DNA from: Felis catus | Taxonomy: Eukaryota | Length of the DNA: 64,000 bases | Assembly (NCBI RefSeq): GCF_018350175.1 | Contig: NC_058368.1 | Location: forward strand, 52,205,815 to 52,269,814 | Reading direction: 5' to 3' | In this document: piece by piece, positions 8,230 to 53,304 of the stretch | How the letters are laid out: the number at the start of each line of letters is the position of its first letter | How positions within the stretch are numbered: the stretch's first letter is position 1 | Position numbers and translations under genes: made by a program | Notes under the pieces: model-generated | Databases searched by the model: none | What the model saw: the letters and a program-made list of their open reading frames with translations, nothing else | Told to the model about the DNA's origin: nothing

Positions 8230-9156
8230 ACCTTCCGCTTCCAGGAATATGGAATAGACATATTTTTCCTGTTCTTTCCACTAAGTACAACCAAAACCTT
8301 GGACATTATATATAAAACAAGTGTAAGAAGTCTTTGAAAGGTAGAAGAAAAAGACAGATCTGTGAGGGATCTCAGGACTCGTGAGTTTCTAGGTGAGCTT
8401 CCATGTGTTTCTGTGGTGAGTTTCCCGGATTTTCTCTTCCTCATATATTCAAGACTTGGAGCTAAGGAAGCTGACAATGCAGAGATGCCAAAGAACTCAG
8501 ACAAACAAAACAAAACAAAAAAAGCCTGCTTTTTCTAGCCAAGGACTGGGAAGGGAAGAACCTAACAAGACAGAAAATGTTTATACAATAATCACTTTAC
8601 TCCAGGGAAACAACACAGAATAAACTGTGACCCAACCTTTACCTCACCGGCAAAGGTCAGAGGGCCCCCAGACTTTGACCTTTGTCAGGCTGTGATGGTT
8701 GTCCCCAAAGCTCCATTCACTTTACGTTCACACAAAAGCCTGTACGCAAATGTTCATAGACTTTATATGTAATGGACCAAGCGGAATCAGCAGACTTGTC
8801 CTCCAACTGGCAAATGCTTAAACCCCCTTGGTACATTTATGCCGTGGGGTAGTACTCAGCAGTCAAACGGATGACCTGTCAGTACATGTGACAATCGGAG
8901 TGAATCTCCAGAGAATTATACTGAATGAAAATAAAGCCCAAAAGGTTGTATTCCACATGATTCCATGCAAAACATTCTTGAAATGACACAAATATAAAAA
9001 TGGAGAACAGGGGCTCCTGGGTGGCTCAGTCGGTTAGATATCCAATTACTGATCTTGGCTCAGGTCATGATCTCACAGTTTGTGAGATCGAGCCCTGCAT
9101 CAGGATTCTGTCTTGGGATTCTGTCGCTCCTTCTTTCTGTCCCTCTCCTGCTCATT

Positions 9157-11558: not shown

Positions 11559-12442
11559 ATCGTTTCTGTCCTTGGTATATTTTTTTACAATGTGGTTACA
11601 GCCTGGCAAAGATCAAAGTCTGGGGGCCTTCTTGACTTTTGCCGGTGTGGTAAAGGTGGGGCCACGGTTTATTCTGAACAGTTTTGTGTGGTGACAGGCT
11701 GAGGAAGCCCTGCCATCTTCAACACAAGGCTTCCACATCTCAGGTCATCTCTATTCCAGTTGGCCAGAAGTATGGAGAAGTACCTGTGGTACGTTTTCAA
11801 TGAATTGGGGAATCGGGTCACCAAAACACCTGTCCTCCTTTTCTTTCTGGGTTTTCAGCTGGACCCTATTCCCCAACCTCTTTCAGGACTGAGTGTCGGC
11901 CAGTAGACTGTGAGAGGAACGGGTATGTGCCATTTCAGACCCGATTCATGTGTCAGCCTGTCACCCCACGAAATAGTTCATCCATTCAGTTAGTTGTATC
12001 AGGTTGCAAGAAATAAACTACGATTGAATAAGGTCTGTAATGCATTTCTCGGGTCTCTTTGTGGTAACTGTTCGTACAAGCCTGCTATTACAATGGACAG
12101 TTCTAACAACTGTGGGTGAGAGAAACAGCTTCACATAAGCCAATGTCAGAGTATCTGCCCATTTGTCTTCTACTTTGGGTCTCTCGTTCAAACTGCTTAT
12201 TCCTCTGTTCATGGCATGTCGACATGCATGGCGAGTCTCTACTCTTCAGTGATCTCAGGGGATTCCAGTCATATCTTAGTTTTAGCTCTCTTAACTATGA
12301 TTGTGTTTCTTTTGTTAATCTCAGAATTCTCCAAAGCAAGATTTGCATTTGCCGTATGCCCCCCTTTTAAGTAAGAGCATCCCAAACACTAAACACCAGC
12401 CTCAAAATTTGTTTAGCATTTTCTAATGACTTGAAACCAGAG

Positions 12443-14479: not shown

Positions 14480-14700
14480 GGGGGACCTGGATGGTTCAGT
14501 TGGTTGAGCGACCAGCTCTTAATCTTGGCTTGGGTCATGAGCTCACGATTTGTGAGTTCCAGCCCCACATCGGTCAGGCTCTGCACTATCAGTGTGGAGC
14601 CTGCTTGGAATTCTCTGCCTCCCTCTCTCTCTCTGCTCCTCCCCAACTCATGCTGTCTCTCTCAAAATTAACATTAAACAAAAAGATTCAGAAGAAAAAA
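14480..14700 (+). mobile_element. CanSINE
   Basis: Diverged head GGGGGACCTGGATGGTTCAG, CT tract, A-tail. Confidence 0.93.
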
Positions 14701-15149
14701 GAGATTTGTGATCTTGGCCAAGATATAAAATAACTAATATATACCCATTTGGAAAAGTATTAAATACTATAACTATACACACTCTATTATGTATTCTAAA
14801 AAGTCCCTTTTGGTTTGAGAAGTTAGTTCTCATAGAAATCGTAGATAGTTATTCTAAGAGTGGTCAAATCATGTAGGCCCACTGAAATTGGGGAAAGATA
14901 ATCTGTCTGCAGCCTCAGTTTGAATGTGGATTCCTTCCCAGATAATCCTTTGAGCTTACTTCTTAGGCTTTGTCTGGAAGCAGAAACAATGCCACCAAAT
15001 ATGATGTATAAGCAAGTATATGTATCTGAACATCATTTGTAATAGGACGTACTGGAAAAAAATGTAAGTACCTACCAATGTAAGACTGGTTTAAAGAATT
15101 GTGTCAGATTTATAAAATGGAATGTCTTGAATTCATTTAAAATATTTTC

Positions 15150-15355
15150 TTTTCTTTTTCTTTATTTTTAATCTCAAGTTAGTTAACATACAGTGTAGTC
15201 TTGGCTTCGGGAGTAGAACCCAGTGATTCATCTCTTACATATGACACCCAGTGCTCATCCCAATAAGTGCCCTCCTCCTCAATGCCGTCACCCATTTAAC
15301 CCACCCTCCCCCACCAGGGGAAATAGGGGAAGGGAAAGATACATTAGATAAAATA
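15150..15355 (-). mobile_element. Carnivore L1 3'-end fragment with probable short 5' inversion
   Basis: GACACCCAGTGCTCATCCCAATAAGTGCCCTCC antisense 3'UTR; flanking AATATTTTCT direct repeats. Confidence 0.8.
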
Positions 15356-15699
15356 ATATTTTCTAAATACAAATTTTTTTATAAATACTACTTTGTTATC
15401 ATTATTGTTAAACATTGACATGGAAGCAACTTTGAAAAGTGTTTTTAAAGTGAGAAAAAGGTAACAAACAAAAACTATACATTAATGTGGTAAAATAATA
15501 TACACACACCTAGAAAATTTATTAAAATATAATTATATATATTGCAAGTTCTCTCTATACTGTCATAGAAAAATACTATCTCAGTGTTAATGATTGTTAC
15601 TTCATGGTTAAATCACAGATTATTTTCTTTTTCTTACATAGCTTTGTATGTGTGTTTATTGCTTGTGCCATAAAGATAAAGTTATATTAAATTATAGTT

Positions 15700-16480
15700 T
15701 TCAGGCTAAAATGGCAGAATATAGTTGGAGCACGAACCTTTCTCCCTAACAGCTAAGAAAATAAATAAAAATAGTAACAAATAAAGTGTGAAATTTAACC
15801 AACAATCAAATAGAAAGGACGAGCAACCACATGTGGTCAAGTTCAAAATGTGATGTTCAGTACAAAAACTAGTTCCTCCCCTGGAGTGGAGTGCAGTGGT
15901 TCCTAGCTTTACCCCTATGTCCCAGTAGTTGTAGTGGGTAGAAAAGTTGAATCAATGAAATTCCAAACTTAAAATTCTCAGCAGCGTCATTATGGTTTGT
16001 ATCCACCGCCATTCCCAGGTTAGAGAGCAGTAAGCAGGCTGAGGCTGCGAGGATGAGGAAATTATTCCAGGAAGAGTCAAGGACAAATCCTATAGAGTAA
16101 AGGCTACATCAATTGAGCCAATAGAAATGGACTTCAAAACCACTGGAGAGGTTTGAGATTATCCAGGATTTCCTGATAAATCCTGGCAAAACTTAAAAGC
16201 CCCAGTGATTCCCTTTCTGGACTAAAATCGTTTCCCAACTAGGTGAAATGATACACAACATTGAAGAAAATCCCGAAGGAGAGAGTGGAGCTGCTGACCT
16301 TTAAAGGAGGATGTGCAAAGACCCAGCTGAACTCCTCCCCACCCTCACTTTCCTTCCATAGCACTCACCACTGCCTCTAGGCTACAGAAAAGCAAAGGGA
16401 ACTCGAGGTTCAGCCTTTGTAGCCAAGAAGAACAGACAAACAGGTTTTAAAAGCAGGAGGGTAGGTGTCTAGAAACATTT
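15700..16480 (+). mobile_element. Possible ancient L1ME/HAL1 5' region
   Basis: Starts GGCTAAAATGGCAGAATA (L1 5'-terminus-like) with A-rich sense texture; highly diverged. Confidence 0.4.
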
Positions 16481-16489
16481 AAATGCTTA

Positions 16490-17415
16490 AAAAATTGTAT
16501 TTCTCACACCCGTGGATGGGTTTTCCACACCAAAAAATTCTATAATTCTCTGCAGATACAACTGAGTATCCTACAATTTACTTCAGTTCTGACACTCACT
16601 ACCTAGAGTTAGCACATACCCTGCTGGTTAAGGGTTCTAGGATTTCAATGTTTATTTATTTTTGGGACAGAGAGAGACAAAGCATGAACCGGGGAGGGTC
16701 AGAGAGAGAGGGAGACACAGAATTGGAAACAGGCTCCAGGCTCTGAGCCATCAGCTCAGAGCCCGACGCGGGGCTCGAACTCCCGGACCTCGAGATCGTG
16801 ACCTGGCTGAAGTCGGATGCTTAACCGACTGCGCCACCCAGGCGCCCCAAGGGTTCTAGGATTTCAGATGCTAATCACCAGTAGTGGGTCCCCAGGTTAT
16901 CCACACTTCTGTCCAACTTGGCCACAAATCGAGTTTCCATAATCCCCTCCACAAGTTTGACAATTTGCCGTAGAGACTCACAGAACTCAGGGAACATTTA
17001 CATTTACCAGTTCATATTATAAGGAACGTAAATGAGGAGGCAGACAAAGAGGTACAAAGGGCAAGGTCTGAAAGGGTCCTGAGTGCAGGAGCTTCTGTTC
17101 TGGGCGGCAACTGGGCCATCTCTCTAGCACATGGATGCATTCCCCAGCCCCAAAGCTCTGGGAAGTCCATTGTTTACGGTTTTTATGGAGGTTCCATTAT
17201 GTAACCATATTTGAATAAATCACTGGCATTGGTGATTAGCTTAGTCTCTAGCCCTTCTCTTCTTGGAGGTTGGGAGGAGGGGAAGAAAGTTTCAACCCTC
17301 CAGTCACATGGTTGCCTCCTTTGGCAAGCCAAACTCCATGCTGAAGCTATCTAGGAAACTATCTAGGGGTCACCAGCCACCAGTCATTTCATTATCATAT
17401 AAAAAGACACTCATC
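16490..17415 (-). mobile_element. MER21/CarLTR-like solo LTR, larger (3') part
   Basis: CAGTTCTGACACTCACTACCTAGAGTTAG, ACTCACAGAACTCAGGGAAC, GGTTTTTATGGAGGTTCCATTATGTA motifs of the MER21 family in antisense. Confidence 0.8.
16648..16848 (-). mobile_element. Young SINEC_Fc nested in LTR, almost no A-tail
   Basis: Perfect 18-bp flanking repeat AAGGGTTCTAGGATTTCA (16630-16647, 16849-16866). Confidence 0.98.
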
Positions 17416-17416
17416 A

Positions 17417-17637
17417 GGGGCGCCTGGGTGGCTCAGTCCATTGAGCATCCGACTTCGGCTCAGGTCATGATCTTGGGGTCTGTGAGTTCGAGCCCCGCTT
17501 CGGGCTCTGTGCTGACAGCTCAGAGCCTGGAGCCTGCTTCGGATTCTGTGTCTCCCCCTCTCTCTGCCCCTCCCCTGCTCATGCTCTGTCTCTCTCTTTC
17601 TCTCTCTCAAAAATAGATAAACATTAAACAAATTTTT
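17417..17637 (+). mobile_element. CanSINE (left inversion breakpoint; non-matching flanks)
   Basis: Full SINE; 5' flank AAAAGACACTCATC, 3' flank AAAGGATTGCTTTA. Confidence 0.97.
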
Positions 17638-17652
17638 AAAGGATTGCTTTAA

Positions 17653-17855
17653 GGGGCATGTGGGTAGCTCAGCCGGTTAAGCGTCCAACTCTTGATATCA
17701 GCTCAGGTTGTGATCTCGCAGTTGTGGGATTGAGCCTCGTGTCAGGCTCTGTGCTGAGCGTGGAGACTTGGTATTCTCTCTCTTTCTCTCTCTGTCCCTC
17801 CCCCGCTAGCTCATGCTCTCTCTCTCTCTCAAAAATAAATAAATAAACTTAAAAA
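17653..17855 (+). mobile_element. CanSINE
   Basis: TSD AAAG(G/T)ATTGCTTTA (17638-17651, 17856-17869). Confidence 0.95.
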
Positions 17856-17999
17856 AAAGTATTGCTTTAAATACTTTCTGCTAGGAATGAAGTTTTACGG
17901 CAGACACATTAGCTTTTAAAAGAATATTTTAGGTTAGAGTCTTCTTAAAGTTTAAATGGTCCTCTGTTCGATGTGTGCAGTTTCACTACCAGTTCATGT

Positions 18000-18430
18000 T
18001 CAGGTAAGAACGTGCTCAGTTTACCAGAAACAGCAAGAAGGCCAGTGTGGCTGGAGGCACAGCAGGGCAGAAAGAGGGCAAGAGGTCAGAGAATTCATTG
18101 AGGGTATTGTGGTCATAGTAATGACTTCGGATTTTATTCTGCGTGACATGGGAAACTAGTGAGTGCCCTAGAATGGCATTAACTGTCATTTTTATAATAC
18201 TCATCCTGCACTGAGACCAGGGGTTACAAGTGCAGCGTGGGGGGGCCAGTCAGAGTGCTTACAGTCACAAGGAAGAGGTGATAGATACTTGGAGCGGAGT
18301 ATCGGTAGTTGAGATGTGAGAAGTACTTGTGTTCTACATGTTTTTGAAAGTACAGCTTGACAGAATTTGCTGATGGATTAACTATGAGGTATTAGAGAAG
18401 GACAAAGTGGATAAGCATAGTTACAAGGGC
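18000..18430 (-). mobile_element. L2 fragment
   Basis: AGAAACAGCAAGAAGGCCAGTGTGGCTGGAG..GACTTCGGATTTTATTCTG..GAATTTGCTGATGGATT. Confidence 0.8.
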
Positions 18431-19185
18431 TTGAGCCCACATTTAAGGATATGCAGATATTACACGATATGTCAACGGACTAGAATTTAAATACAAATTT
18501 GAGAAAAAATAAAAATATCCAGCCGTATTACTATTTCCAATGTGTCAATGTGCTTTCGATGTTTCATAACGTTTGCATTCTATCTCATTACCATGTTTCC
18601 TACAATTAGTCTTCATTCTATATTTGAACATATTTAGTTATTGCTACCACTGATTTTATGTCAGCTTTTCCATTCTTGCTTTTCTTATTCCTACTTCTTG
18701 GTGGACTTGATTTCATCATCAGCTTTTTTTTTTTTTTTAGGGAGATTCACAGATCCCACATTCCCTGGGATATTTCTTGGTCGTAAATGTCTGGCTTTGA
18801 GTTATATCAAATGACACTTTTTTTTTGAGTTTCACTTTCTTTCCCCGAGAACCCTGCACCTGTAACTCTGCTGTCTCTTATCCCTGAGTGTTGTTCCCTG
18901 CCTTTTGCCACAGATTCTCCACTTATATTCTGCTCTTTGTCTTCAAGTATTTTTTCAAGAGCCACTTAAAGATATTCTACTCTTTGCTTTTATTTTTGTC
19001 TTGGAATTGTCTGCTTATTGTCTTTACACTTGACAGTTTAACAACTTATACTGTTTTAAGTCACACTTTGTTCCTCAATATTTGGGGGAAATTTTCCATT
19101 GTTTTCTGATATTGATTGTTAGCACTAAGAAACCAAGCTCCAGCCCGATTTTTTTTTTTTGACCCTCAGAAGTGATGTACTTTGT

Positions 19186-19392
19186 GGGGCACTTGGGTGG
19201 CTCAGTGGGTTAAGTGTCTGACTTCAACTCGGGTCATGATCTCACAGTTCGTGGGTTTGAGCCCCACGTAGGGGTCTGTGCTGACAGCCTGGAGCCTGGA
19301 GCCTGCTTTGGATTCTTCTGTGTCTCCCTCTCTCTCTGCCCCTCTGCTGCCTGCTCTCTGTCTCTGTCTCAAAAATAAATAAACATTAAAAA
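19186..19392 (+). mobile_element. CanSINE
   Basis: Head, CT tract, tail; TSD AGAAGTGA(TG/CT)TACTTTG. Confidence 0.95.
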
Positions 19393-19487
19393 GATTATAA
19401 GAAGTGACTTACTTTGCTTGTCTAATGCCTAAAAACTTCTTTACCTTTAAAGTTCAACAAATGAAATATTCTTCAATATTGTTTGCT

Positions 19488-19516
19488 TGATGATGATGAT
19501 GATGATGATGATGATG
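19488..19516. repeat. (GAT)n microsatellite
   Basis: TGATGATGA run; explains poly-Asp in ORF 19483. Confidence 0.95.
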
Positions 19517-20065
19517 AGAATGGTGACGTGTGTTTGTATATCCTAAAACATACTACCTTCTTTCAAAACTTTACATTTGGTTCTCTTTTCAGTTCAGAAA
19601 AAAAGTGTTATTCTATTATTCCTTTGAATACTTTTTCATTTTTCTGCGTGCCCTATTTCATGGACATTGATTTTGTATTATTTTTGGCTTCTAAACTCAT
19701 TATCCTCTCTCTAATTTCTCTTTGTCTTTTTCTTAAGCATGCCCTGTGATTATTTCAAGACTTTCTGGAACAGGAACTTAATATCCAACCATCCATTCCC
19801 TTGGCATTATTTTTCATGTATTATTTCTGTAATAATGTCATTTGTATCCTTAATTTACCAATAACTTCTTATGTTATTCTATTCATATAGTTATTAAATT
19901 CTTCTATTGTATGATGAATTTGAAAGGAGATTTCATCTGTTTCCTGGAGTATGTTTTCTTATAGGACTGGTCCTGTGAGGGTTTTTTTCCCCATGTGGTA
20001 TATATTCACAATTGCCATGACAATTCTTTGCACTAACTACCCAAATCTATTTATTGGATATAGTA

Positions 20066-20500
20066 TTGTAATATTGTGATATAATAAATATGAAATATAG
20101 ATAATAGTTTTCACCCCCTGTTTCTATCACACAGCCCCTAAAGCCTTTACAATTTCTTGGGGCGCCTGGGTGGCTCAGTCAGTTGAGTGTCCGACTTCGG
20201 CTCAGGTCATGATCTTACTTACATGAATTCAAGCCCCGTGTCGGGCTCTGTACTGACAGCTCAGAGCCTGGAGCCTGCTTCAGATTCTGTGTCTCCCTCT
20301 CTGCCCCTTGCCCACTCACACTCTGTCTCTCTCTCTCTCTTTCTCTCTCTCTCTATCAAAAATAAATAAACATTAAAAAAATAACCTTTACAATTTCTTG
20401 AGTGGTAGAAGCATCACGTGTTATATTTGGTCTTAGCACCCAATTCCTGACACAAAAGCTTTTAAGACCCTTAGAATTTCTCGGGGGATGAGTGTCTTTT
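20066..20500 (+). mobile_element. MER21/CarLTR-like LTR, 5' part (opposite strand to 16490-17415)
   Basis: Begins TGTAATATTGTGATATAATAAATA; ATATTTGGTCTT..TTCCTGACACA..TAAGACCCTTAGAATTTC..GATGAGTGTCTTTT. Confidence 0.8.
20159..20382 (+). mobile_element. CanSINE nested in LTR
   Basis: TSD CCTTTACAATTTCTT on both sides. Confidence 0.97.
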
Positions 20501-20627
20501 TATTTTTATTATTTTATTATTTTTTAATGTTTATTTATTTTTGACAGAGAGAGAGAACTCACAAACTGCAAGATCATGACCTGAGCAAAAGTTGGACACT
20601 TTACCGACTGAGCCACCCAGGTGTCCC
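20501..20627 (-). mobile_element. Internally deleted CanSINE (right inversion breakpoint)
   Basis: GA tract joined directly to GAACTCACAAACTGC; flanks are GATGAGTGTCTTTT and TAAAGCAATCCTTT. Confidence 0.95.
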
Positions 20628-20780
20628 TAAAGCAATCCTTTTAAAAGAAAGTAGGAAAGCTATGGGGGATTCCCATTAAAAATTATACTTTCTGAGCAGA
20701 CATGTTAGTAACTAAAATAATTTTAATAATATTGTCACCAAACTATACATGATAAAACATAGAGTTGGTCAGTTTAGCTT

Positions 20781-20985
20781 CTTTTAAAAATTTATTTATT
20801 TATTTTGAGAGACAGAGAGAGAGAGTGGGTAGGGAGGGCAAGAGAGGGAGGGGGACAGAGAGAGTCCCAAACAGGCTCCACTGTCAGTGCAGAGCCTGAC
20901 TCCAAGCTTAAATCTATGAACCATGAGATCATGAGCTGAAATCAAGACTCAGATGTTCAAGTGACTGAGCCACCCAGGCACTGCC
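20781..20985 (-). mobile_element. CanSINE
   Basis: Tail, GA tract, CTGAGCCACCCAGGCAC. Confidence 0.95.
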
Positions 20986-22244
20986 TAAATTAGCTTTGTA
21001 AAAAATACATTTTAAGTTCTGCATAATGGAGCCTAAAGTTTTGTAATACTAGCATAAAGATATTCCCCTATGTGCATATGTAGTAAATTAGATAAACCCA
21101 TAATCCACTGAGGACATTAAATTTCTTTCGAATAAAAAGATGGACAATATGCCAAATTCTAGGTTAGGTATATAGTTCATGGCTATAGAGACAAAATGAG
21201 GTAGAAAGCTTAGGAGTATATTTGGATAAAACGAGTTAACTAAGTGCATTATATGAAAAAAAAAAGAGTGGTTTTCTGAAATGAATTCTTTGAATTGATT
21301 GCACAAAGTGACAAATAGAAAAAAGAAGCAAGAAAGCAAAAAGAACAAGAAAACTACAAAAAATAAACCTTAATTTAGATGCAGATTGTGTTAGCATCTC
21401 TCCTCTAGTCTGATCTTCTCTCCATATCACTCACACTCTCAAGTTGAGCTAACAAGAAAACAGTGAAATTTACTTGGAATTCAGATACCTTTTCTTATGA
21501 GCTAGAGAGACAAAGAAATCCCTTCCTTGAAGTTCCTGAGTTAAGAGACAGGCCATTTTCTATGTGAGATAATGTGTTCGCCTCTTAACTACGGAGAATG
21601 GAGCTTGATGAATAATCAGCTGGACAGCAGTTGTGCAATCACTGATAGGAAGTCAGGAGTCATCGCTGGGAAAACATAAGAAAGTTTGAAGAGCCTAAGG
21701 ACAGAGGGAAGGGCTCCAGATCCCCCAGGGGAATTAGGGAATTTATAGGTTCAGGTAAAAGTGGTGTGTTTTGGTACTTTTATCTCAGAAACATACAGAA
21801 GATTGTTCAAAAAAAGTCAGTGGGTCTACAGTTGCAGATTTTATTTAGGAAAAAACAAAACAGGAGAAAAACCTTAGAGCTATCTGTACACGGCAAAGTT
21901 TACAGAAGAAAGTGTCCTTTGTTACTCTGTTGGATGTAACAACCAAAAGCATTCCAAGATTTCACTGTCCCTCCGCAGACACTCTGCCGATTTAGGGAAG
22001 CGATTAATTTCAATCTGCAATTTTTCTTCGTTCCCTTGTAGATCCTTATTTGAGCAGCTTAGTGGGGAAGCTTAAGAGTTCTTACAACTCCCCTTGCTGG
22101 CAGCAAATAAGAAGTGCAACTTTAATGTGGAAAACTTCAGATATTTATCTGGAAAGTAATGGCTAACTATAAGATCAACTTTTAATTTTAAAAACAAGAT
22201 TGCTTCCAGCTCTGATCTCTGAAGAAGTTTAAAACGTAAATTAA

Positions 22245-22420
22245 GGGTCGCCTGGGTGGCTCAGGTCATGATCTCGCAGGTGATGAGTTTGAGCCCCGCG
22301 TGGGGCCGTGTGCTGACAGCTCAGAGCCTGGAGCCTGCTTCGGATTCTGTGTCTCCATCTCTCTCTGCCCCTCCCCTGCTCTCTCTCTCGCTCTCTCAAA
22401 AATAAAAGCACATTAAAAAC
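22245..22420 (+). mobile_element. CanSINE with short internal deletion
   Basis: GGGTGGCTCAGGTCATGATC: segment between the two GGCTCAG motifs missing. Confidence 0.95.
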
Positions 22421-23019
22421 AACTAAAAAGGAATAAAAAACAAAACATAAGTTAAAACCACAAAAAGTAATAATTAAATTTGTTGGAGATCCTAATTTCC
22501 TGAGAAGTCAGGTCAACAATGAATCTTACATTATACATTTAATTCAACAGCCTAATTTCAAAAATTCATATCTGACATCTGATCCAGAATAACATTTTCA
22601 CCTCCTGAACTTTCGGATTGTGCCTCTGCCGAATGCCATTCTGTCTCCATAGATCTATCGTTATCTGTGGCAGAAACAGAAGGTTCCCCAATCATTTAAT
22701 CTACCCCCCCCCCGCCCACACCACGCATTTTAACCCCCTTGCCATTCTTGCAATTGGGCAGCAGTGATGTGCATCACTTACCGGTCTTCAAACAAAAGAA
22801 CCTGCCCACGACCCCCAATGTCTCCCCCACAGCTGCGGTCACTGCAGACGTCCCAGATAGTGTCCATCGGCCTAGTGCTTGAGTGCCCATATGGAGCAGA
22901 TTCCCCTGCGTGCCTATTCTTCCTAATGACCCACAGTGGATTCTGCATGAGAAATGCCTGTTAAGAGTTAAGCAATTGAGATTTCGAGGCTCTTATGTGC
23001 TGAAAATAATAAAGTAGCT

Positions 23020-23260
23020 GATGTTTTTAGAACACCTGCAGCATATTAGGCACAATCCTGAACACTTCATATGTCTCACTCGGTGTTTGCAACAGGCCAG
23101 TGAAGCAGTTTTGCTATTTTAGTAGCCACATTTTATAGATGACCAAACTGTGGCAAAGGTAGGTGCAGTAACTGATCCCAGGTAAGATGGCAAGGAAGTG
23201 ATGGAACCAGGAAGCAACTCAGTCTCCAAATTCGCTCAGTTTTTATTTCTACTCTACACT
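23020..23260 (-). mobile_element. MIR
   Basis: CACATTTTATAGATGACCAAACTGTGGCAAAG core in antisense. Confidence 0.8.
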
Positions 23261-23289
23261 GTCTAATAAGCCAGACTTCACAATTCTTT

Positions 23290-23528
23290 TTTTTTAAGCA
23301 TTCTTTTTTTTTTAAATTTTTTTTAACATTTATTTATTTTTGAGACAGAGAGAGACAGAGCATAAACGGGGGAGGGGCAGAGAGAGAGGGAGACACAGAA
23401 TCGGAAACAGGCTCCAGGCTCTGAGCCATCAGCCCAGAGCCCGACGCGGAGCTCGAACTCACGGACTGCGAGATTGTGACCTGAGCCGAAATCGGACGCT
23501 CAACCGACTGAGCCACCCAGGTGCCCCC
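23290..23528 (-). mobile_element. Young SINEC_Fc
   Basis: Perfect TSD AGACTTCACAATTCTTT (23273-23289, 23529-23545). Confidence 0.98.
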
Positions 23529-23619
23529 AGACTTCACAATTCTTTAAGACTAGCTACACTCAACTGAATGTCATAATTCTATTCAGTAAGCTATAAAGGC
23601 AGGTTGTTATACACTTGCC

Positions 23620-24290
23620 CATTTAACCAAAATATAGTTATCAAGAGTCTACTTTGTTGAAGGCACAGTGAGGGATAAAAGCAGTGTGAGGTATAGAATG
23701 TAGTATGAAATATGGTCCCTTATCCTCACAGAGATTTTATCAAGCTAGGGAGACCAACTGGAGAACTATGGGAAGGCCAATAGCAATACAGGAGGCTTTA
23801 CACGGCTAGTTGTCGAATTAACCTTCAAACAGTAAGTGATCAGTAAGTGTTCATTGGGGAGAGGAAGTGGGGACACGCAGGAGGGAAAATCAGGGAAGAA
23901 AGGTGCAGAAAAACTAGCAAAGGAGGTGAATAAGATCAGACTGCAGATTCCCATCCCACAAGGTACGATAATCAAACAAGGCTCCATGGATGAGGTGGGG
24001 CTTGAGCATAAACTTGACAGACAGGTAAGCAGGGTGGGTCAGGGCTTTTCAAGTGAGTAGAGTGGCCCAAATACATGCGAGGGCTCCCAACATCTCTAAG
24101 AAGAGAGAGTTTGGCAGGGACAGAGAACTTCCATGTTATTGATCATGGTGTGATAAGGCAGATAAGGATAATGGCCAGCAAATTATGAGGATCTGAAGTT
24201 GTGTTTATCTTCTATGCAACAAGACATCCTTAATGTTTGTAGAATACTGAGCTGTCACTGAAATATAGGTAGATGCCCAGAAAGGTAGCT
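23620..24290 (-). mobile_element. L2 fragment
   Basis: GAGTCTACTTTGTTGAAGGCACAGTG..ATGGTCCCTTATCCTCACAGAG..GGATGAGGTGGGGCTTGAGC. Confidence 0.6.
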
Positions 24291-24599
24291 GGAGGGATCA
24301 TGAATACCCACGCACAGGCACACGTGCATGTCACTTTAGCTACGGCAATCTGTCTATGATGTCTGCACATATGATTTCTCAAAGTTTTTGTCTGAACCAG
24401 CTATTTACTTATTCAAAAAATGGTCTCCGTTAACAGTTTTTATACTGTTCTATTCTGGTTTTTTGATCTCCATATTATTTAGTTGAAAACAAATGAGAAA
24501 CCACAAAGTATTTTGAATATTATTTTATTAGAGAAATGTATGCATATGGGTTATATCAAATATGTATCAAACACGGTTTTACTCCTCAGGGTTAAGCTC

Positions 24600-24860
24600 T
24601 TTTATTTATTTATTTTTTTTATTTTTATTAATTTATTTATTTGTTTTTAAATTTTTTTAACGTTTTACTTATTTTTGAGATAGAGAGAGACAGAGCATGA
24701 ACGGGGGAGGGTCAGAGAGAGGGAGACACAGAATCTGAAACAGGCTCCAGGCTCTGAGCGGTCAGCACAGAGCCCGACGTGGGGCTCGAACTCACGGACC
24801 GCAAGATCATGACCTGAGCCAAAGTCGGCCGATTAACCGACTGAGCCACCCAGGCACCCC
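24600..24860 (-). mobile_element. SINEC_Fc
   Basis: TSD AGGGTTAAGCT; long composite T-rich tail. Confidence 0.97.
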
Positions 24861-25351
24861 AGGGTTAAGCTGTTTTAACTGTCTCTTTTAGTTTGAGGTG
24901 GTAATTGCCTTTATAACGCTAAATTATATGCTTCTACGCTGATTTCTTGACTTTCAAAGTTATGAAAATATCTTGACTTTTTAACACAAAAATATGAGAA
25001 TCTGTCTCATGCTACTCTTTTTTCTTCAATTTGATATTTTTATATCATTAGTAACTTTATTATTATTATTTTTAACTAACTTTATAACTTTCAATAATGT
25101 CCTTGATTTCTCTTTCTTTTCCCATCTACTTCAGACAATACTTCTCGAGTCCTCTTTTGTGAGATGAAGCTGTGAGTTCTCCGGCCTTTCTCTCCACAAG
25201 TTTTCTTCCTTCTGAAAGTCTGACTTACAGCTGTATTTTTACTTTGATCTTGTCAAGATTACTAACATCTCCCACCTCTCCAGTATTCTCAACTAAGTCT
25301 CTCACCTTTTCACAATACGTTGATGATAAGATTTGAGAGTCAAAACCAATC

Positions 25352-25382
25352 TTTTTTTTTTAATGTTTTTTTAATGTTCATT

Positions 25383-25427
<45 letters not shown>

Positions 25428-25586
25428 ATGGTAGGGGAGGGGCAGAGAGAGAGGGAGAACAGAGGATCCAAAGCAAGCTCTGTGCTGGGAGTAGACAGCC
25501 TAATGCGGGGCTCAAACTCATGAACCATGAGATCATGAGCCGAGCCAAAGTGGGACGCTTAACCGACTGAGCCGCCCAGGTGCCCT
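25352..25586 (-). mobile_element. CanSINE with long (GA)n
   Basis: Reverse head, (GA)n 25386-25425, TSD AGTCAAAA. Confidence 0.95.
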
Positions 25587-27154
25587 CAGTCAAAAAGCAA
25601 ACTTCACACTGGTCTGATCACACACCCACACTTTTCCATGCCACACCAACTTGCATGCTTCCGTCAGCCAGATGCCTTCATCTCTTGGTCACCTGAAGAA
25701 AATGTTTTTAGAGTTCAAGTCAACTCAATTCTCCTTTTAAATACTTCATCAATTATTAAATTCATGTCATATTTAGTTTGCTTTTTATCTAGACAATCAA
25801 TTTCATGATCAGCGTTTTTTGTTTGTTTTCTTCAAGGTTTTTAATTGCCTTTCTTTTTAACTTGTGTTGGTCGTATTCATTATAACGTGTTTTTCTTCTT
25901 GTTCTTATTTTATGCACCTAGTATGTCCCGATCTCTAAAAAAATGTTAGAGGCTTTCTGAATATCTTTATTTTCTCCGGGGTCTGTGTTCTGGTTGTTAT
26001 TCTCATCCCCGCTACTGGTTTGCGTATGGATTCCTCATACGCCTGGTGATACTTGGTTATCCATTCAGGGCTGATATGGAAGCAAAAGGTAGATGGGGTG
26101 AGTTTCCCCTGCTATTGCATTTCTCAACTGAATTTTCCCCTGGTGAGGAAATTATAATTGGCAGTTCCGTGTGGGGCTGATCCAGGCCAAAAGGATGATT
26201 GGGTCCCTGAGCCAACTCTGCATATCGATACAGTTTCACCCTTTCCTGCTGTAGAAGGAAGAGATAGTGACCATAGTTGTCTTTCTTTTTTGCCACCTGA
26301 AAAAGATTGCTCTGATAAGTGCAGAGTTAAGAGGTTTCATTTTAGGAGAAATGGAAAATCCAGAATGAAGAGGACCTTCAGTGGTTGGGGAAGTAACATC
26401 CCTATTGAAATCTGACTTTCCTCCTACATTTTGGTTCCGTTTCTTTAGAGAGAAGCCTTGTGATGCTTTGCCTAGAGAGAATGCCAACTGTCTGGGCTCT
26501 GTGCTGGTTGTGGGGTAGTGGGATGGGCACACAGACTGGCATAATGATCCCATGAAAGATCTTTATCAACAACCCGATCTCAGCTTCATTTCCCTTCCCT
26601 ACACTTGGTTATCGGCTAATTCTGAACTCGGAGTCCCTTGGAGGTTCCACTAGACAGATGTTCCTGACTCCCTGGGAACATAGTCTAGGCTGACTCTGCC
26701 CATCGTTTCATTTCAAAAGTCATTTCTGTCCTTGCTGGTTTCCAGACATATTTTTGAAGTGTTTGTTCATTGATAGCAATTTTTCCCAGAAAGCATCTTA
26801 TTCTCTCAGGATGCTGTGGATCTTTTCTTTTTGTGCTTTATGCCTACTCCATCTCAGCCTGCTGCCATTGATGTTTGAAAAAAAAAGGCGGTGGGGAGGC
26901 AAACCGAGATGTCAGTCACATAGTGTCGATTTCTCAGAGACTTCACATAGTTTAGAATCCTTAATTAAAGAATCTCTAGATTCCAAGAGGGCTATAATAT
27001 GAAGGATAAGAAATAGAAGTTGCTACTCGAGGAGTCAAGTGGAAGGAAGGAAATGAACACAGGGTAGCAATGGACTTGATCCTTCTTCTCAGCCTCCTGA
27101 GGAGGAGTCAGCCAAACTGGTTTTTGATCTAGGAAATACACTTGTAGTATTTTT

Positions 27155-27368
27155 AATTTTTTTTTAATGTTTATTTATTTTTGAGACAGGGAGAGACAGA
27201 GCATGAACGGGGGAGGGTCAGAGAGAGAGGGAGACACAGAATCGGAAACAGGCTCCAGGCTCTGAGCTGTCAGCCCAGAGCCCGACGCGGGGCTCGAACT
27301 CACGGACCGCGAGATCATGACCTGAGCCAAAGTCGGATGCTTAACCGACTGAGCCACCCAGGCGCCCC
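27155..27368 (-). mobile_element. Young SINEC_Fc
   Basis: Perfect TSD ACTTGTAGTATTTTTA (27140-27155, 27369-27384). Confidence 0.98.
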
Positions 27369-27589
27369 ACTTGTAGTATTTTTAGAATCACCTGTGCCCG
27401 TCCTTTCCACTGTGTCTGCTTCAGTGTTTGGGGTATTTCGAACTTGCTTCTCTGTCCATTAGGTTTCCTGATGCAGTACCTTGAAAAATATTTTCCCTCA
27501 CGTCTCTCTATGTGATGTCTCCACAGAAGAATCTAACCAGAGCTTTTGTTTTACCACCACCATCAACATTGTTATTATGACTTAAAGGG

Positions 27590-27950
27590 TTGGGTTTCAC
27601 TGATTCCTATGTCTAACCTCCTAAAATCCCTTTGGATTTTTAATCTGCAATTCCCAGTGTTTGCCATTTTAGTACCATCTGCAAATTAGTTAATGTGCTG
27701 TTTAGCCTTTCTTTGAAATCAGTAATTAAGATGTAAAGTAAGACTGAGCCCAAGACTAATTCTCTGGGCTTCCCACTGGGACCTCTCCTGAGCTCGATGA
27801 CTCTTTTATCACCACCCCTGGCTTATCATTTTCCGGCCAAATCTCAAGCCATTTTACTAGGTATATAATTAAGTTGATTTATGAGGGTCACTAGATTACT
27901 TTCATTTTGCTAAATGTTGTCTGATACGTGTATTTGTTTTGCTTAGCTTT
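27590..27950 (-). mobile_element. CR1/L3 LINE reverse-transcriptase fossil
   Basis: Minus strand translates SGKPRELVLGSVLLYILITDFKERLNSTLT then (frameshift) FADGTKM, matching CR1 RT motif [21 protein letters not shown]...FADDTKL. Confidence 0.75.
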
Positions 27951-29013
27951 ATATTTACTTATGTTGAAATACTATAGCCAAAGAAGAGAAGAATATTTTC
28001 AGCCAAAATAACCCGGGTATTTTCTGAGAGACAATCATTTAGGATCTTAGTATCAGTTCTATCATTTAACTGCAGCCAAAGTTCAGCATCTAGAATATAA
28101 TTACAATTCGGTGACATTTTTCTTCTATCTTATTTATTATTTTTTATATTTTTCCAGTTCTCTAGTATCTTTCCACCTTTTTTTGGAGAACAAAAACAAA
28201 AAAGTGTCTCTATTTTGGTAAATGTATTCACTTATTCCCTGATCAACCATAGAAGGATCCTTTGTTTTCGGGACTTAGGCATGTTCTATTAGCTGCCAAT
28301 TATCTATGTCTCAGACTGACATTCAAATAATTAAATATTCAGGTGCACTGATCCTGCCACCAAGGGTTTTATGAGCATTTGAGAAATTTGTTTAAGTTTA
28401 ATTGGGAAATTAAGCCATGGGGCAACGTTACTGCAAACCTCTACTGCTGTGCTCTGAGTAACTAGACTAATCTAGGTCAGAAAAGCACAATAGGACATAC
28501 AAATGCCTAAAGAACTCAACATTGTGCTTGTAATGAGTGCCAAGTTCTGAGATACTTTAATCTCACCATTCTGGAACTTTCTTCTTTGAATTTGCAGAAT
28601 AGGCTCTGGCTAATAACCCGAATCTTAATGATTGCTAGCCTTGTCTCTTTCCTCTGGTCCTCCTCTGTCCGTCAGAACTTTCTCAAGTATTTTATTACGT
28701 GTTTGCAAAGCAGATAACACTCCTAGCCCTCTGAGTCAGACGTCGGTCTCTCCGTTTCTGGGAAACATATCTAGCCAGGCAGTAAACACTTTTATTTCAC
28801 TATAAATACTTGAAAGTTTATGATTGTAGAATGATAGATTATTCTTTCCCCACTGATTCTTAAACACCTCCTGACAGAGAAGACCAAATGAATGGCTCTT
28901 TTTTAATTTTATATTTTCTTTAAGACTTCCTTAACATAATCAAAAAATTACCCTAAGGTAAAGGAAAAAAGAAAAGAAGGGAGGTGGCCGGGGGGGGGGG
29001 GCGGGCGGTGAAA

Positions 29014-42087: not shown

Positions 42088-42474
42088 ACAACAACAACAA
42101 GACAACAAGAACAACACACACACACATATATAAAACAACAAGAACACACACACACACATATATATATGTGTGTTGTTTTTAATATATATATTATATATGA
42201 TTTTAATATATATATAATTAATATATTTGTGTATAGATATGTATACATATACAGCAAAGCCTTAGCAACTTGTCAAAATACTTTCTAAAGTATTACAAAA
42301 TACAAATACAAATAATAAGTATTACAAAATACAAATACAAAATAATGCAAAGCCTGTTGCTAAGACTGTGTGTGTGTGTGTGTGTGTGTATATGTATATA
42401 TATATGTGTATATATATACACATTATATATGTATATATGTATATATATGTATATATATATGTATTATATATATG

Positions 42475-42517: not shown

Positions 42518-44563
42518 CCCATCCAGATTCTAAACTGAAATTAACTAGAACAGAACCTAAACTAGCATCCTGGACCCATTGATTATATTACGTCTCACTA
42601 AAATGTTTTCTTTGCTGAGTACAGAAACCACTTAGTTGCATAAAAAACTTTCTGCTTTTGGATATATTTGGAAATATTTATGCTTAATTTATTGTGTAAT
42701 TGTCAGATACAAAAGAAGAAAAATACTGAAACTGTATTATGACCCCCACGTTGGAATTATACAGCTGGTAGGGAAGTTATCATCTAATACAAGTGTTAAT
42801 GAAATGTTAATCTTCTAAACATGAGCCTTCTGTGATCCAGAAACAGCAACTGAAGAGGCAAACACAAAGTACATACATAAACCAGATCACATGTTAGCAA
42901 AATAATAATGGATATGATATTTTTCATCTTGCCCTATTTTATTGTTCTTTCCTTTCTTTTCTCTCTGTCTCTCCACAACTATATACTTAAAAATTTAAGG
43001 ACTGTGAGAGTTTCACTACTCTCAAACACCCATACTGCAGAGCACATAGAATGCATGCTAATTAAATTTCAAACAGCAATGCAGGTAGTCAAACAAATAC
43101 ACAACAGATTCTCAATCTATATTTTCAACTTAAATTAAAATAAGGTACAACTCCTTTATAAAAGACAAAAATTCAAATTGTATTTCTATAACGCAAATCC
43201 CAGTTATAAGACGGAGTAGTCAGCATGAAGATTTGCCACCAGCCTCTTAAGTGCATTAGAAATTAGCCCAACGCTGAGCATTCTCTATTTTAAAATGCTG
43301 TAATAGCTGGCTTGACTGCGCACAGGTATTCACAAGCAGAGAATAGTCAATGTAATCATCTAGTCAATTTGAAAAAAGCCCTATGATCTTATGTCACCTA
43401 CTTCTCATCTCTATGTTGAGCCATAAAAGAACCCTGCTTAATTGTGACCAAAGTGGTTGATAATGCCAGAGAAGACCTATCAGATAGATCTGGATGCTTC
43501 CATATGCAGTGACTTGCTCATTCAGGGGTCACTGACAGATCAAATACTTGGTGGGAAAATTTCCAACAGCTCTATCAAGATAATTTTTAGAATAATTTTT
43601 AAGGCTGTATGTTAGAAAGTATTTTGACAAGTTGCTAAGGCTTTGCTGTTCATCTGAATGTGCCATTTTCTTCACATCTCTCAAGTGGGAAATCACCAGA
43701 GATCTAACCAGTGATTTAGTGTTCATCCGTGCCGGAGAGAAACTTCAATGGTTCATTAATGTAGGCTGATTCCCACTCCTGCTGCCTTTGATTCTGGTTT
43801 TAATATAAGCTTCCTATCTGTGTGACTGTCACGGGCACAGTCCAAGCAAGCACAGAGATGGCAGCTGAGAAACCAGAAAGTTATTTTTCAATCATATATA
43901 GGTAGCCTCATTAGTTGTACTAAAGATAATAATAATTATAAATGTAGCCTTTTCACATCACCCAGGTGACCATGTTGAGTGTATTGTCTCTAAGCGTTTG
44001 TCAGCATGTAAAGATCTCTCTTGTTGCACATGGAATTAAAAGGGATTTTGTCCTGAGACTCCCTTTAGAAATTTCCATTAATTCCGGCTTTCTTTCCAGC
44101 TAACAATTATTTTGTATGACCAATAGAGAATTGCAGCATCATTTGGTGTGTTGATATTGAATGACTCATGATAGCAGAAAGCTAGAGAGGAAACAAAATA
44201 AGATGGCCAGAGCAGGGATACCTGGATTTTAGAACTTCTTTAGGATTCTTCCCAAAGAAGCAGTGACTTACTCATTGGATAAACCAAGCAATGATGAAAA
44301 GGGACAATGTCAAAGGATGCTTTAAAATTCATTTGTATCCCTTCTATGGCAAAGTACCATTTGGGGATTTTTTTTTTAACAAAAGGGGTGGAAAGGTCTC
44401 TTTTCAAGTAGCTTGGTGAGGTAGGGGAGCAGAGAAGTTGAGAATGAGCTTAAGGCACTAATACAATCCAAAGTATCCTTGGTCTGCTCAAGTAGAGTTC
44501 TCATTTGACCTAAACCCATGAGATGTGCATTAAATATCTGGACTTAAAATATGGTGGTTCACA

Positions 44564-47864: not shown

Positions 47865-48770
47865 CAGTATGGTGATTCGACAATTGCATACGTGACACAA
47901 TAAACATAGTTACCATATGAAATTATTACGATATTATTGACTCTAGTCCCTATGCTATACTTTTTATCCCTTGACTTATTTATTTTATAAGTAAAGAAAA
48001 ATTCTATTTTTTAAGTTTGTATCTCTTAATCCCTTTTACCTGTTTTGTACAGCTTCTCACTTTCCTTCCCTCTGGCAACTACCACTTTGTTCTCTGAATT
48101 TAGGAATTGGTTTCTGTCTGTTTATTTGTTTCGTTTTTTAGATTCCACGTATAAATGAAATCATAGTATTTTTCTTTCAATGTATGGTTTATATCATTTA
48201 GCCTAAGACCCTCTAGGTCCATCCATGTTATCACAAATGGCAAGATTTCATTCTTTTTGTAATTTTTTTTAATGTTTATTTATTTTTGAGAGACAGAGAC
48301 AGACTGTGAACGGGGAAGGGGAAGAGAGAGAGGGAGATGCAGAATCTGAAGCAGGCTCCAGGCTGTCAGCACAGAGCCCAGCGTGGGGCTGGAATTCACA
48401 AACTGTGAGATCATAACCTGTGCCGAAGTCAGACACTTAACCAACTGAGCCACCCAGGTGCACCAAGATTTCATTTTTTTTTTTTATGGCTGAGTAATAT
48501 CCTGTTGTGTGTGTGTGTGTGTGTGTGTGTGCATGTATCACATTTTTTTATCCATTCATCTATTAATGGACACTTAGGTGGCTTCCATAGCTTGGCCACT
48601 GTAAATAATTTGGTAATAAACATTAGCTTGCATATATCCTTCTGAGTTTGTATTTTTATTTTCTTTGGATAAGTACCCAGAAGTGTTGGACACCTGAAAC
48701 TAATATAATATTGTATGTCAACCATAACTTCAATTAAAATAAAATAAAACAAAATAAAACAAAACAAAAT
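47865..48770. mobile_element. Carnivore L1 3' fragment with 5' inversion (minus 47865-48684, plus 48685-48770)
   Basis: Antisense 3'UTR/ORF2 end joined to sense terminal TTGGACACCTGAAACTAATATAATATTGTATGTCAAC + A-rich tail. Confidence 0.85.
48262..48463 (-). mobile_element. CanSINE nested in L1
   Basis: TSD CAAGATTTCATT. Confidence 0.96.
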
Positions 48771-49639
48771 ATCTTTATAAGCCAAGTCAAATGCCAAATA
48801 CCAAATTAGGGAAAATTATCTATGGCTCATATTAAATAAAATGGTTAATCTTCATGGTATGTAAAAAGCTACTAGAAATTGAGATGAAATAGACCAATAC
48901 CCTACAGAAAAAAAATGAGCAAGCGATACAAACACAGTTCATAGATAAAGAAATATGACAGGCATTAAAATATAAGCAGAAGGCAAACTCCACTCATAAT
49001 AAAAGATACGTGAACTGAAACCAGCTGTATTTTCTCACCTCTCAGATTGGAAGAAAATAAAAAAAGTTGTTAACATGGTCTGTTGATGAGGCCGTGGGGG
49101 AGGGAGACACTGTTACACATGTTTGGGAAGGGCAGACCAGTACAACCTTTAGGAGGTAAACCTGACAATAGTTTCAAACTTACAGATGCGTTTACTCTTG
49201 AACCCAGAAATGCTGCTTCTGGGAATCTAGCCTGCAGATATATTGCGCAACTCAAATGACTCAATAATAATATTACACTGCGATATTGCTTATAATAACA
49301 AAATACTGGAAACAAGCCAATATAGACCATGATGCATCTCAAAATTGGAATGTTATGCAGTTGTAAAAGAAGAGCTGGGTATCTTTGTACATAGAGTGGC
49401 AGAGATTCGGAATACATTGTTAGGTGAAAAAGCAAGGTCCAGATCAGGTAGCATGCTACCTTTGGTATACGAAAACGAGAAGAATATCACATTAACAGAT
49501 GCATAAGAATATTCTAGAACTAATAAAAATCCTGGGGAAAGGAGAGACATTAGGAAGACTAATGGTGGGAACAGGAGATATAGTACTGGTTAAAAAATAA
49601 AGAGAAAAACCATAAGGTGTAGGAATTTTGGAGAGCGTA

Positions 49640-49944
49640 CACAAGAAACAACAAATGTTGGTGATGATGCAAAGAAAGGCAAACCCTCTTACACTCTTGG
49701 TGAGAAGGCAAACTGGTGCCGTCACTCTGGAAAATAGTATGGAGGTTCCACAAAAAGTTAAAAATAGAACTACCTTATGATCCAGCAATTGCACTACTAG
49801 GTATTTACTCAAAGGACACAAAAATATTGGTTTGAAGGGGCACATGAACCCTGATATTTATGGCAACACTATCAACAATAGCCAGATTATAGGAAGAGCC
49901 CAAATGTCCATAGACTGATGAATGGATAAAGAATATATGGTATA
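49640..49944 (+). mobile_element. L1 ORF2 C-terminal fragment (younger than flanking L1M)
   Basis: CTGGAAAATAGTATGGAGGTTCCACAAAAAGTTAAAAATAGAACTACCTTATGATCCAGCAATTGCACTACTAGG. Confidence 0.9.
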
Positions 49945-49945
49945 A

Positions 49946-50163
49946 GGGCGCCTGGGTGGCTCAGTTGGTTAAGCGTCCAACTTCAGTTCATGTCACGATC
50001 TCCTAGTTCATGGGTTCTGGGCCTCATCAAGTTCTGTGCTAACAGCTCAGGGCCTGGAGCCTGCTTTGGATTCTGTGTCTTCCTCTCTCTCTGCCCCTCC
50101 CCCTGCTCATGCTATGTCTCTCTTTGTCTCAAAAATGAAACAACGTTAAAAAAATTTTTTAAA
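49946..50163 (+). mobile_element. CanSINE
   Basis: Head, CT tract, tail, followed by AT-rich low complexity. Confidence 0.95.
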
Positions 50164-50962
50164 TGTGATATATATATTTTTTAAATATATATTGAAATAT
50201 ATATAATAATATATACTTAATATTAAATTACATATAATTATATATATGTGGCATATACATATATATATTATTTTTTAATCAGCATAATGAACAAGACTCA
50301 TGTCTAGTGTTGTCCACTCTGGGACCAGAAGTCTTGATGCTAAGAGAGAAGTAGGGAACGTCCCATGTAGATACCAATGTCTGGAAGCCACATGCATGGT
50401 GAGTACTGGTGGATGGTGGCTGCATGGGTTCAAATCTAGACTTCACCACTTAATCGCTGGGTGAGGCTGAGCATTGCATTTCAGAGAATAGAATGATCAA
50501 GAACAGTACAATGTATCAATTAGTGAAAGGATGTTTTACTTTAATGAAAAAGAAAATGTACTGCATTTTAATAGCAAAAGAGAAACAATGACACTTTTCA
50601 CATGGGGGTGGAGACTAAAGGTAGACAATAAAAAATAGTGGCTCTAGACATAATCCACAGATTTGTACACGTGGAAACAGTCTTGTTGGTCAAGGCATAT
50701 TTGACTGAAAAAACAAACCACTAGAAAAATAGGAAGGCTGATGTGCCTGGATTCTAAAAGGTTTTTGTTTGTTTTGTTTTGTTTTGCTTTTTGCCGCTAG
50801 TGAAACCATACATAATGTCTGCCCCGTAAATCCATGTGAACTTAAAAACAACGGAGAGATTTAAAGAAAGTAGAATGAACATAAAATTGGGACGGAAGGT
50901 TATATTAAGAGGATTGAAGGGAGTAAAGAGTTTTGACTAAGAATTTTAAAAACAAGCACTAT

Positions 50963-51167
50963 GGGGCGCCTGGGTGGCGCAGTCGGTTAAGCGTCCGACT
51001 TCAGCCAGGTCACGATCTCGCGGTCCGTGAGTTCGAGCCCCGCGTCAGGCTCTGGGCTGATGGCTTGGAGCCTGTTTCCAATTCTGTGTCTCCCTCTCTG
51101 CCCCTCGCCCGTTCATGCTCTGTCTCTCTCTGTCCCCAAAATAAATAAACGTTGAAAAAAAAAATTT
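50963..51167 (+). mobile_element. Young SINEC_Fc
   Basis: Perfect TSD AAAAACAAGCACTA (50948-50961, 51168-51181); CpGs intact. Confidence 0.98.
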
Positions 51168-51339
51168 AAAAACAAGCACTAAATTCCATGCATCTGGCTG
51201 CTATGGATATTGAGGATGTAAAATTAGGTATATTGTATAGCTGGAGGTGCAGGTAATATGAGATAAAATGGTTAATACATTTTGAATTTTTCATCATTAT
51301 TAATAATAATTGATGGAAATAGCTTATCCAAATTTTGAA

Positions 51340-51980
51340 TTAAACCAAATTCAAATCAAAAAGTACTTATTAAATACCTATTTCATGAAATATATAAGCT
51401 TAAGGGTTGTGGAGGAAGGTCACCAAATGACAAAATGTGGTCCCTCCTATCAGTGCACATGTAATCAAGACAGAGAGACAAACATTGGACAATTAGTAAG
51501 ACAGCATGATGTGAAGGCTAGAGTTACAAGTATAAACAAAGCACTTAGAAACACTTAAGAAGCAATTATATCATATATGGAATCAGACAAGACTTTACAG
51601 AGGATTTGGCAAATGAACTTGGCTTTGAGGAGTAATTGGAATCCCATTTAGCAGAAAAGCTAAAAAAGGAACTAACTACAAGGGTAAATAGAGTAGCAGA
51701 AACATGACATGTAAGAAATAAGGACAGGAAATCAGGGAACAAGTTGAGACTAGGTCACTAAGGGTCATACATGGATTCTAAGGAGTTTAGACATAATTCC
51801 AGGATAAATACAGAGATGTTGAACTTTATTGAGAAGAGGCATGAAAAGCTTTAAATTTCTGTCATTAGTGTAAAGATGAACTTGTTGATCAGCATGGAAT
51901 CCATTAATGACCCAGGCTAGGCTAGGAATCCATTAATGACCCAAAGTCTAAAGATCAGTGGAAATGAAAATGGAAAAGAG
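51340..51980 (-). mobile_element. L2 fragment
   Basis: AAGTACTTATTAAATACCTA..AAGGAGTTTAGACATAATTCC..CAGTGGAAATGAAAATGG. Confidence 0.65.
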
Positions 51981-52221
51981 TAAAATATTCAATGAAATAA
52001 CAACTCTTCAAATTTAATCTTTAAGTAGAATTTCTACGTTTTAAGAAATATTCAAATTTTATCAACTAAATTTTAAGTTACATGGTGGCAAAAATGGTTA
52101 TTTCCCATTTATTTACTTAATGGATAGTTGATGCTTAATAAATATTTATTATAAAGTTTGATTGATTTTATTAATCATGGTATTTCCTTTCTAAGCATTG
52201 ACTTAAACTGTGGGTATCTTT

Positions 52222-52719: not shown

Positions 52720-52794
52720 TGTGGGTATCTTTAAGAAAATACTAAATTTTATTAGAGGATCGAGGGTTTTAATAAGTACTGTTTAGCCCTAGAC

Positions 52795-52999: not shown

Positions 53000-53091
53000 C
53001 CCTAGACCAATCAGAGGTAAACCATTTTATCTATAGTTAAAGGATCAAATAATTTATACATTTAAAGTGAAAGATGGTAATTCTTTATAAC

Positions 53092-53292: not shown

Positions 53293-53304
53293 TTCCTTAT
53301 AACT

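Follow-up and report, generated by a model that had tools for sequence, protein, structure and literature searches.

Reciprocally swapped target-site duplications point to an inversion of about 3 kb between two inverted Can-SINEs in a felid genome

Results

A segment of about 2.9-3.2 kb in the genome of Felis catus was very probably inverted when two short interspersed elements (SINEs) of the Can-SINE family, already in place and lying in opposite orientation, underwent ectopic recombination or template switching. The segment is part of a 64,000-nucleotide stretch of contig NC_058368.1 (assembly GCF_018350175.1, positions 52,205,815 to 52,269,814, forward strand), referred to below as the window, and coordinates are those of the window. 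The breakpoints are occupied by two SINEs of the same family, SINE A on the left (17417..17637, +) and SINE B on the right (20501..20627, -), and neither is flanked by a target-site duplication (TSD) of its own. The inverted segment spans 17638..20500 at the minimum (2863 bp) and 17417-20627 at the most (3211 bp), and it contains three further SINEs together with decayed older repeats.

The evidence for the inversion lies in the flanks of the two elements. The first TSD, X, stands to the left of SINE A at 17399..17415 (+; 14-nt core 17402-17415), separated from it by a single additional A (17416), and has the A-rich start expected of an L1-endonuclease site. Its core is the exact 14-nt reverse complement of 20487-20500 at the tail of SINE B, and the match grows to 17 nt (17399-17415 / 20487-20503, the latter being the right copy on the - strand), running partly into SINE B's A-rich tail. 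The second TSD, Y, follows the tail of SINE A at 17638-17651 (+) and is the exact reverse complement, over 14 nt and with no extension beyond them, of 20628-20641 (-) at the 5′ end of SINE B, where a T-run/A-run precedes it on its own strand, again as expected of an L1-endonuclease site. The left copy of Y doubles as the 5′ TSD of another element, SINE C (15 nt with base 17652). The original prediction had reported both 14-bp matches, and all four coordinates were borne out.

Both sequences are rare in the window: with up to two mismatches X occurs twice and Y three times, and the number of exact copies expected on both strands of the whole window is 0.0020 for X and 0.0016 for Y under an order-2 Markov model. 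As a control, 32 SINE copies were delimited by hand from 36 blastn rows, after merging two split copies and setting aside two short internal self-hits. Comparing every 5′ flank with the 3′ ends of all the other copies gave 992 ordered cross pairs. The A-to-B (17 nt) and B-to-A (14 nt) matches took ranks 3 and 4; ranks 1 and 2 (30 nt each) are trivial, coming from two directly adjacent tandem pairs, and the next best cross match below the A/B pair reached 11 nt. The own-TSD match was only 4 nt for SINE A and 5 nt for SINE B, whereas 11 of the 32 copies retain a TSD of their own that is exact over 11 nt or more. Because A and B match crosswise and neither has a TSD of its own, 17638-20500 is read as inverted relative to the ancestral order. 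This agrees with the predicted flip, and the reciprocal swap is a published diagnostic of a derived inversion: the study of such events in primates calls the derived state by non-matching TSDs (PMC2603318, Methods and Fig. 5 legend). That no inversion took place, the flanks matching by chance or having been copied between the SINEs by gene conversion, is close to negligible. The A-runs that open both TSDs somewhat raise random matching, but with these runs removed the per-site probabilities stay as low as 9e-7 and 3e-7, and one-way gene conversion would not give a swap that is reciprocal and ends at the TSD limits. We therefore reject chance and one-way gene conversion.

The two breakpoint elements differ in completeness. 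SINE A is a full-length Can-SINE of 221 nt with subtype IIA diagnostics, and SINE B is 127 nt long, comprising SINE positions 1-73, an internal deletion, and the CT repeat with the tail. Approximately 98-107 nt are missing between position 73 and the CT repeat, and the remaining body of 83 nt is the shortest of the 32 copies (150-199 nt in the others). The common heads of A and B are identical at 59 of 73 positions (81%), and their longest exact identity is 18 nt at SINE positions 42-59 (17458..17475, + in A), which is the candidate crossover zone. This degree of likeness also bears on whether the assembler flipped the segment at the SINE copies, the true chromosome having matching TSDs. One chimpanzee candidate in the primate study did fail polymerase chain reaction (PCR) as an assembly error (PMC2603318), but here the heads are only 81% alike, SINE B has unique flanks and the window is without N. 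With 18 nt as the longest A/B identity and a SINE B short enough to be spanned by ordinary reads, an assembly misjoin is very improbable, and we reject it as well, with less certainty than chance or one-way conversion.

Subfamilies were called by mapping the diagnostic positions of Walters-Conte et al. 2014 (PMC4084570) onto our alignment. Both A and B lack the subfamily I insert near position 36 and have T near position 51, T in the A-box and T in the B-box; at the GGCTCGG motif near position 118, SINE A has a variant with two differences and SINE B has the region deleted. By these diagnostics A and B appear to belong to subfamily II and not to IIB, the subtype of SINE B being read from its head. 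The subfamily II insertions set an upper limit of ~35 million years on the age of the inversion (PMC4084570). The IIB pattern itself, which is confined to felid clades in the same study (PMC4084570), was found in 6 of the 32 SINE copies, in keeping with a felid host. The heads of A and B each deviate at 10 of 73 positions from the majority profile of 10 neighbouring copies, and the few differences from the profile that A and B have in common fall at CpG-type sites. An alignment of the SINE halves had been proposed for placing the crossover; the comparison of subfamily diagnostics and divergence proved uninformative on this point. The diagnostic bases are identical in A and B across the 73-nt common head, with no diagnostic switch within either element, and hence no crossover can be placed.

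Site Y has a more complex history than site X. A third copy of Y with one mismatch lies at 17856-17869 (+; the feature, Y′, extends over 17856..17870) and forms the 3′ TSD of SINE C (17653..17855, +), which directly follows SINE A and is carried inside the inversion. The own TSD of SINE C (15 nt) is thus Y itself. SINE C is of the older subfamily I type, with the 7-8-nt insert, an A in the B-box and one TSD mismatch, in contrast to the subfamily II diagnostics and zero mismatch of A and B. As Y also flanks the older SINE C, the second SINE had apparently inserted in tandem at SINE C's site, and the ancestral order at Y, as read from these copies, had a young SINE immediately preceding an older one, both at a single site. 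The same young-before-old arrangement is intact elsewhere in the window, at 53090-53530 (-), where a young IIB-type SINE precedes an older subfamily I SINE and the pair is bracketed by three versions of one A-rich TSD. Our literature searches on tandem same-site SINE insertion found nothing relevant.

We infer that the cause was recombination of pre-existing copies and that both present SINEs are chimeric. The older SINE C would first have inserted at site Y, duplicating it. The 5′ copy of Y would then have received a younger SINE, S2, immediately before SINE C, and another, S1, would have inserted at site X, ~3 kb off and in the opposite orientation. Strand exchange between S1 and S2 would have flipped the intervening DNA and swapped the TSDs, leaving A with the head of S1 and the tail of S2, and B with the head of S2 and the tail of S1. 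The ~100-nt deletion in SINE B may have formed at one junction, by a join at 2-3 nt of microhomology, or may be a separate loss from S1.

The deletion could also be explained if a new insertion had recombined, through its complementary DNA (cDNA) or a broken end, with a resident SINE, so that insertion, inversion and the deletion in SINE B were one event. Such coupling would account for the largest internal deletion among the 32 copies being in a breakpoint element, and short inversions at L1 insertion ends, as well as joins of L1-made with other breaks, have been reported. We nevertheless consider it improbable, as both junctions are clean SINE 5′ termini against a complete TSD, like two normally finished insertions, and the L1-end inversions described involve one insertion, not two.

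Recombination between the resident copies S1 and S2 may have been favoured by a neighbour of SINE B. SINE 20159 (20159..20382, +), which has an intact 15-nt TSD, lies tail-to-tail with SINE B across 118 nt, a closer spacing than in any other of the window's 16 inverted neighbour pairs. As single-stranded DNA, SINE B and SINE 20159 form a single long stem when folded (-93.7 kcal/mol; z -12.7 against 100 shuffles). Since SINE B's tail and X stay joined to the inverted segment, the 118-nt spacing would have been unchanged by the event if SINE 20159 was already there, and this element may conceivably have provided an initiating hairpin or break. The swap and the inversion given in the original prediction thus stand, but that account had omitted SINE C with the third copy of Y, the ~100-nt deletion in SINE B and its inverted neighbour. 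In the same interval, the target site of SINE 20159 resembles the sequence just past X (20383-20414 vs 20415-20500, -), with 17 of 23 positions identical. A likeness this good was equalled in 2 of 500 shuffles and hints at an internal duplication in the old repeat; further downstream the likeness is non-significant (243 of 500 shuffles as good).

Both breakpoint inserts are poly(A)-tailed, at endonuclease-type sites and with split TSD-like duplications, a pattern common to inversion by recombination and to concurrent insertion and therefore not discriminating between them. Under concurrent insertion, two SINE RNAs would have been reverse-transcribed simultaneously at X and Y and their free ends joined crosswise. 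Neither A nor B would then be a chimera; both would be intact elements of equal age, each with its own tail-side TSD and the upstream copy of the other site. The geometry at the locus would fit, since the same TSD footprint is expected, and the equal divergence of the two heads (10/73 each) is compatible, without discriminating. Against this stands the need for two different SINE RNAs to insert simultaneously in a germline at sites within 3 kb of each other, whereas the reported cases are somatic or come from induced L1 expression, and in the two reported inversions both inserts shared one junction (bioRxiv 10.1101/2024.12.14.628481). Recombination of an inverted pair, by comparison, has millions of generations in which to occur, and 28 Alu events were recorded between human and chimpanzee (PMC2603318). 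We regard concurrent insertion as an improbable account of the locus.

Between the breakpoints, SINE C and SINE 20159 are accompanied by a passenger SINE (19186..19399, +) that has its own TSD of 17 nt with two mismatches. A T-rich block occupies 18500..20060 (-), with an AT skew of -0.32 (18500-19180) and -0.24 (19400-20060), opposite in sign to the blocks beyond both breakpoints (+0.21 at 15700-16460 and +0.11 at 20990-22240). The change of sign is as expected of an A-rich block turned round, which supports the inversion without proving it. The T-rich block resembles a decayed L1 5′/ORF1 region, a label left unconfirmed by searches that gave no L1 match. Only unrelated families, all below the cut-off, came up in six-frame Pfam scans, which covered 14700-17400, 17870-20490 and 20640-28000 (24 translations) as well as 30 short pieces. 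In PDB searches with three frames of the T-rich block, two were empty and the two alignments printed for the third depend on a His-run that comes from a TGA microsatellite. Inside the inverted segment, at 19488-19517, there is a perfect (TGA)10 microsatellite that may be useful for genotyping.

Older sequence next to the two copies of X may derive from one element. The stretch 16466..17415 (+), which ends at X and is interrupted by a younger SINE at 16644-16848, is assumed to be an old MER21-like long terminal repeat (LTR), and 20063..20486 (-) looks by eye like the remaining 3′ part of the same LTR on the opposite strand; the labels and limits of both were unconfirmed by searches. By these presumed limits, drawn by eye and likewise unconfirmed, the two parts sum to ~0.9 kb without the nested SINEs, not far from the published length of MER21C, 938 bp (PMC12129452). 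Searches for further copies of the LTR-like flank gave 0 matches in metagenome contigs and prokaryote genome contigs and no blastn match in plasmids or phages, and the 14-base flank motif was found in no paper. Matches to the flank in viral contigs (4 of 4) align over an 18-base motif alone and were dismissed as chance. A scan for TG...CA LTR termini with an exact 4-6-nt target duplication yielded 0 of 35 candidate pairs, exact survival not being assured at such age. The SINE at 16644-16848 (-) is a young IIB-type copy with a perfect 18-nt TSD, lying in the LTR-like flank 568 nt upstream of SINE A and head-to-head with it.

Neither a gene nor an RNA family was apparent in the flipped segment. 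Rfam gave no match anywhere in the window, none of the 36 frames of at least 90 aa in the window looks like a gene, and no 2-kb bin has a CpG observed/expected ratio above 0.52. Small exons or an intronic position would be compatible with these results.

Several other repeats were recorded in the window. A perfect 38-bp inverted repeat joins 42251-42288 and 43612-43649, 1.3 kb apart; AT/GT microsatellites enclose a patch of short duplications (~42240-42370) in which the former copy sits, and this copy has the appearance of a recent templated insertion with the latter site as its source. A 79-bp inverted repeat, 89% identical, lies at 8616-8693 / 11598-11676, 2.9 kb apart and outside any SINE. 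In the SINE at 22245-22425 (+), ~27 nt of the head are missing, and two short direct repeats in the A-box region apparently bounded the loss. Several fragments that resemble one another, lying in either orientation, occur at 48000-54000, 59300-59430 and 63400-64000, and the frames 48471-48815 and 49616-49777 resemble L1 ORF2 C-terminal sequence, a label that is presumptive and unconfirmed.

Discussion

Several points weigh against an inversion by recombination between resident SINEs. The reading is drawn from one genome, in which the pre-inversion arrangement is unseen. Chimerism of A and B is not demonstrable, with 10 of 73 head differences in each and the common ones at CpG-type sites. The model also needs S2 to have reused SINE C's site with almost the same second cut. 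As for the interior, AT-skew blocks of similar size are found elsewhere in the window, and 18001-18500, inside the segment, has weakly positive AT skew. The continuity of older repeats across the breakpoints is presumptive, and neither the searches nor the terminus-pair scan confirmed it.

With no protein or RNA family found in the segment, the inversion carries little biological weight as a recombination product. Its interest lies in being a clean, self-documenting case in which, as with Alu pairs, DNA can be inverted by Can-SINE pairs only ~81% alike. Such an inversion is expected to be rare and directional, so with its distribution established the locus could be used as a marker of phylogeny among cats. 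Two further points could be tested here at little cost, namely whether the deletion in SINE B was part of the event and whether a closely spaced third inverted SINE can act as a trigger. The locus would gain greater weight only if orthologues showed neither SINE ever uninverted. If concurrent insertion were true, end exchange of the kind reported for L1 in tumours and cell lines would, through SINE RNAs, have acted on an inherited mammalian genome as well, and some inversions assigned to recombination on TSDs alone would need re-examination.

The kind of rearrangement is already known, and the present locus is one more instance, clean but ordinary. Literature searches found no paper on a Can-SINE-mediated inversion, though felid structural-variation tables and supplements may list the locus. 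The word 'inversion' is absent from the main text of the feliform CanSINE paper (PMC4084570) and from that of a 2026 canine retrotransposon review (PMC13756887). A vertebrate survey reports SINE-mediated ectopic recombination and sets inversions aside as <0.2% of variants (PMC13320814).

The closest parallel is provided by the human and chimpanzee retrotransposon recombination-mediated inversions (RRMI) of Lee et al. 2008 (PMC2603318), a study that describes the mechanism for primate Alu and L1 pairs; the original prediction had named Alu pairs as a known case. Those inversions likewise have an inverted same-family pair at the breakpoints and mismatched TSDs, and the present size is within their range (166 bp-81 kb, median 1452 bp, with Alu-mediated inversions averaging 769-1934 bp). 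An accompanying deletion of internal sequence and/or elements was reported in 12 of 49 RRMI events (PMC2603318), and the loss in SINE B fits this pattern, while it could be separate. Unlike the primate cases, the present elements are tRNA-derived Can-SINEs of a felid, one partner stands in tandem with an older SINE and its TSD exists in three copies; proof there was comparative and by PCR, whereas the present case is read from one genome. Concurrent L1 insertions (bioRxiv 10.1101/2024.12.14.628481) resemble the locus in having two poly(A)-tailed inserts, endonuclease-type sites and split TSD-like duplications. They differ in being somatic or induced, in involving L1 or processed cDNA, and in their megabase or interchromosomal scale, in contrast to short SINEs 3 kb apart in a germline. 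The Galileo inversions of Drosophila buzzatii (PMC2775673) are due to a DNA transposon, unlike the present SINEs that are 81% alike, and have in common with them the ectopic recombination of inverted mobile-element copies. Within the feliform CanSINE subfamilies I, IIA and IIB (Walters-Conte et al. 2014, PMC4084570), A and B match the II/non-IIB class and C matches subfamily I.

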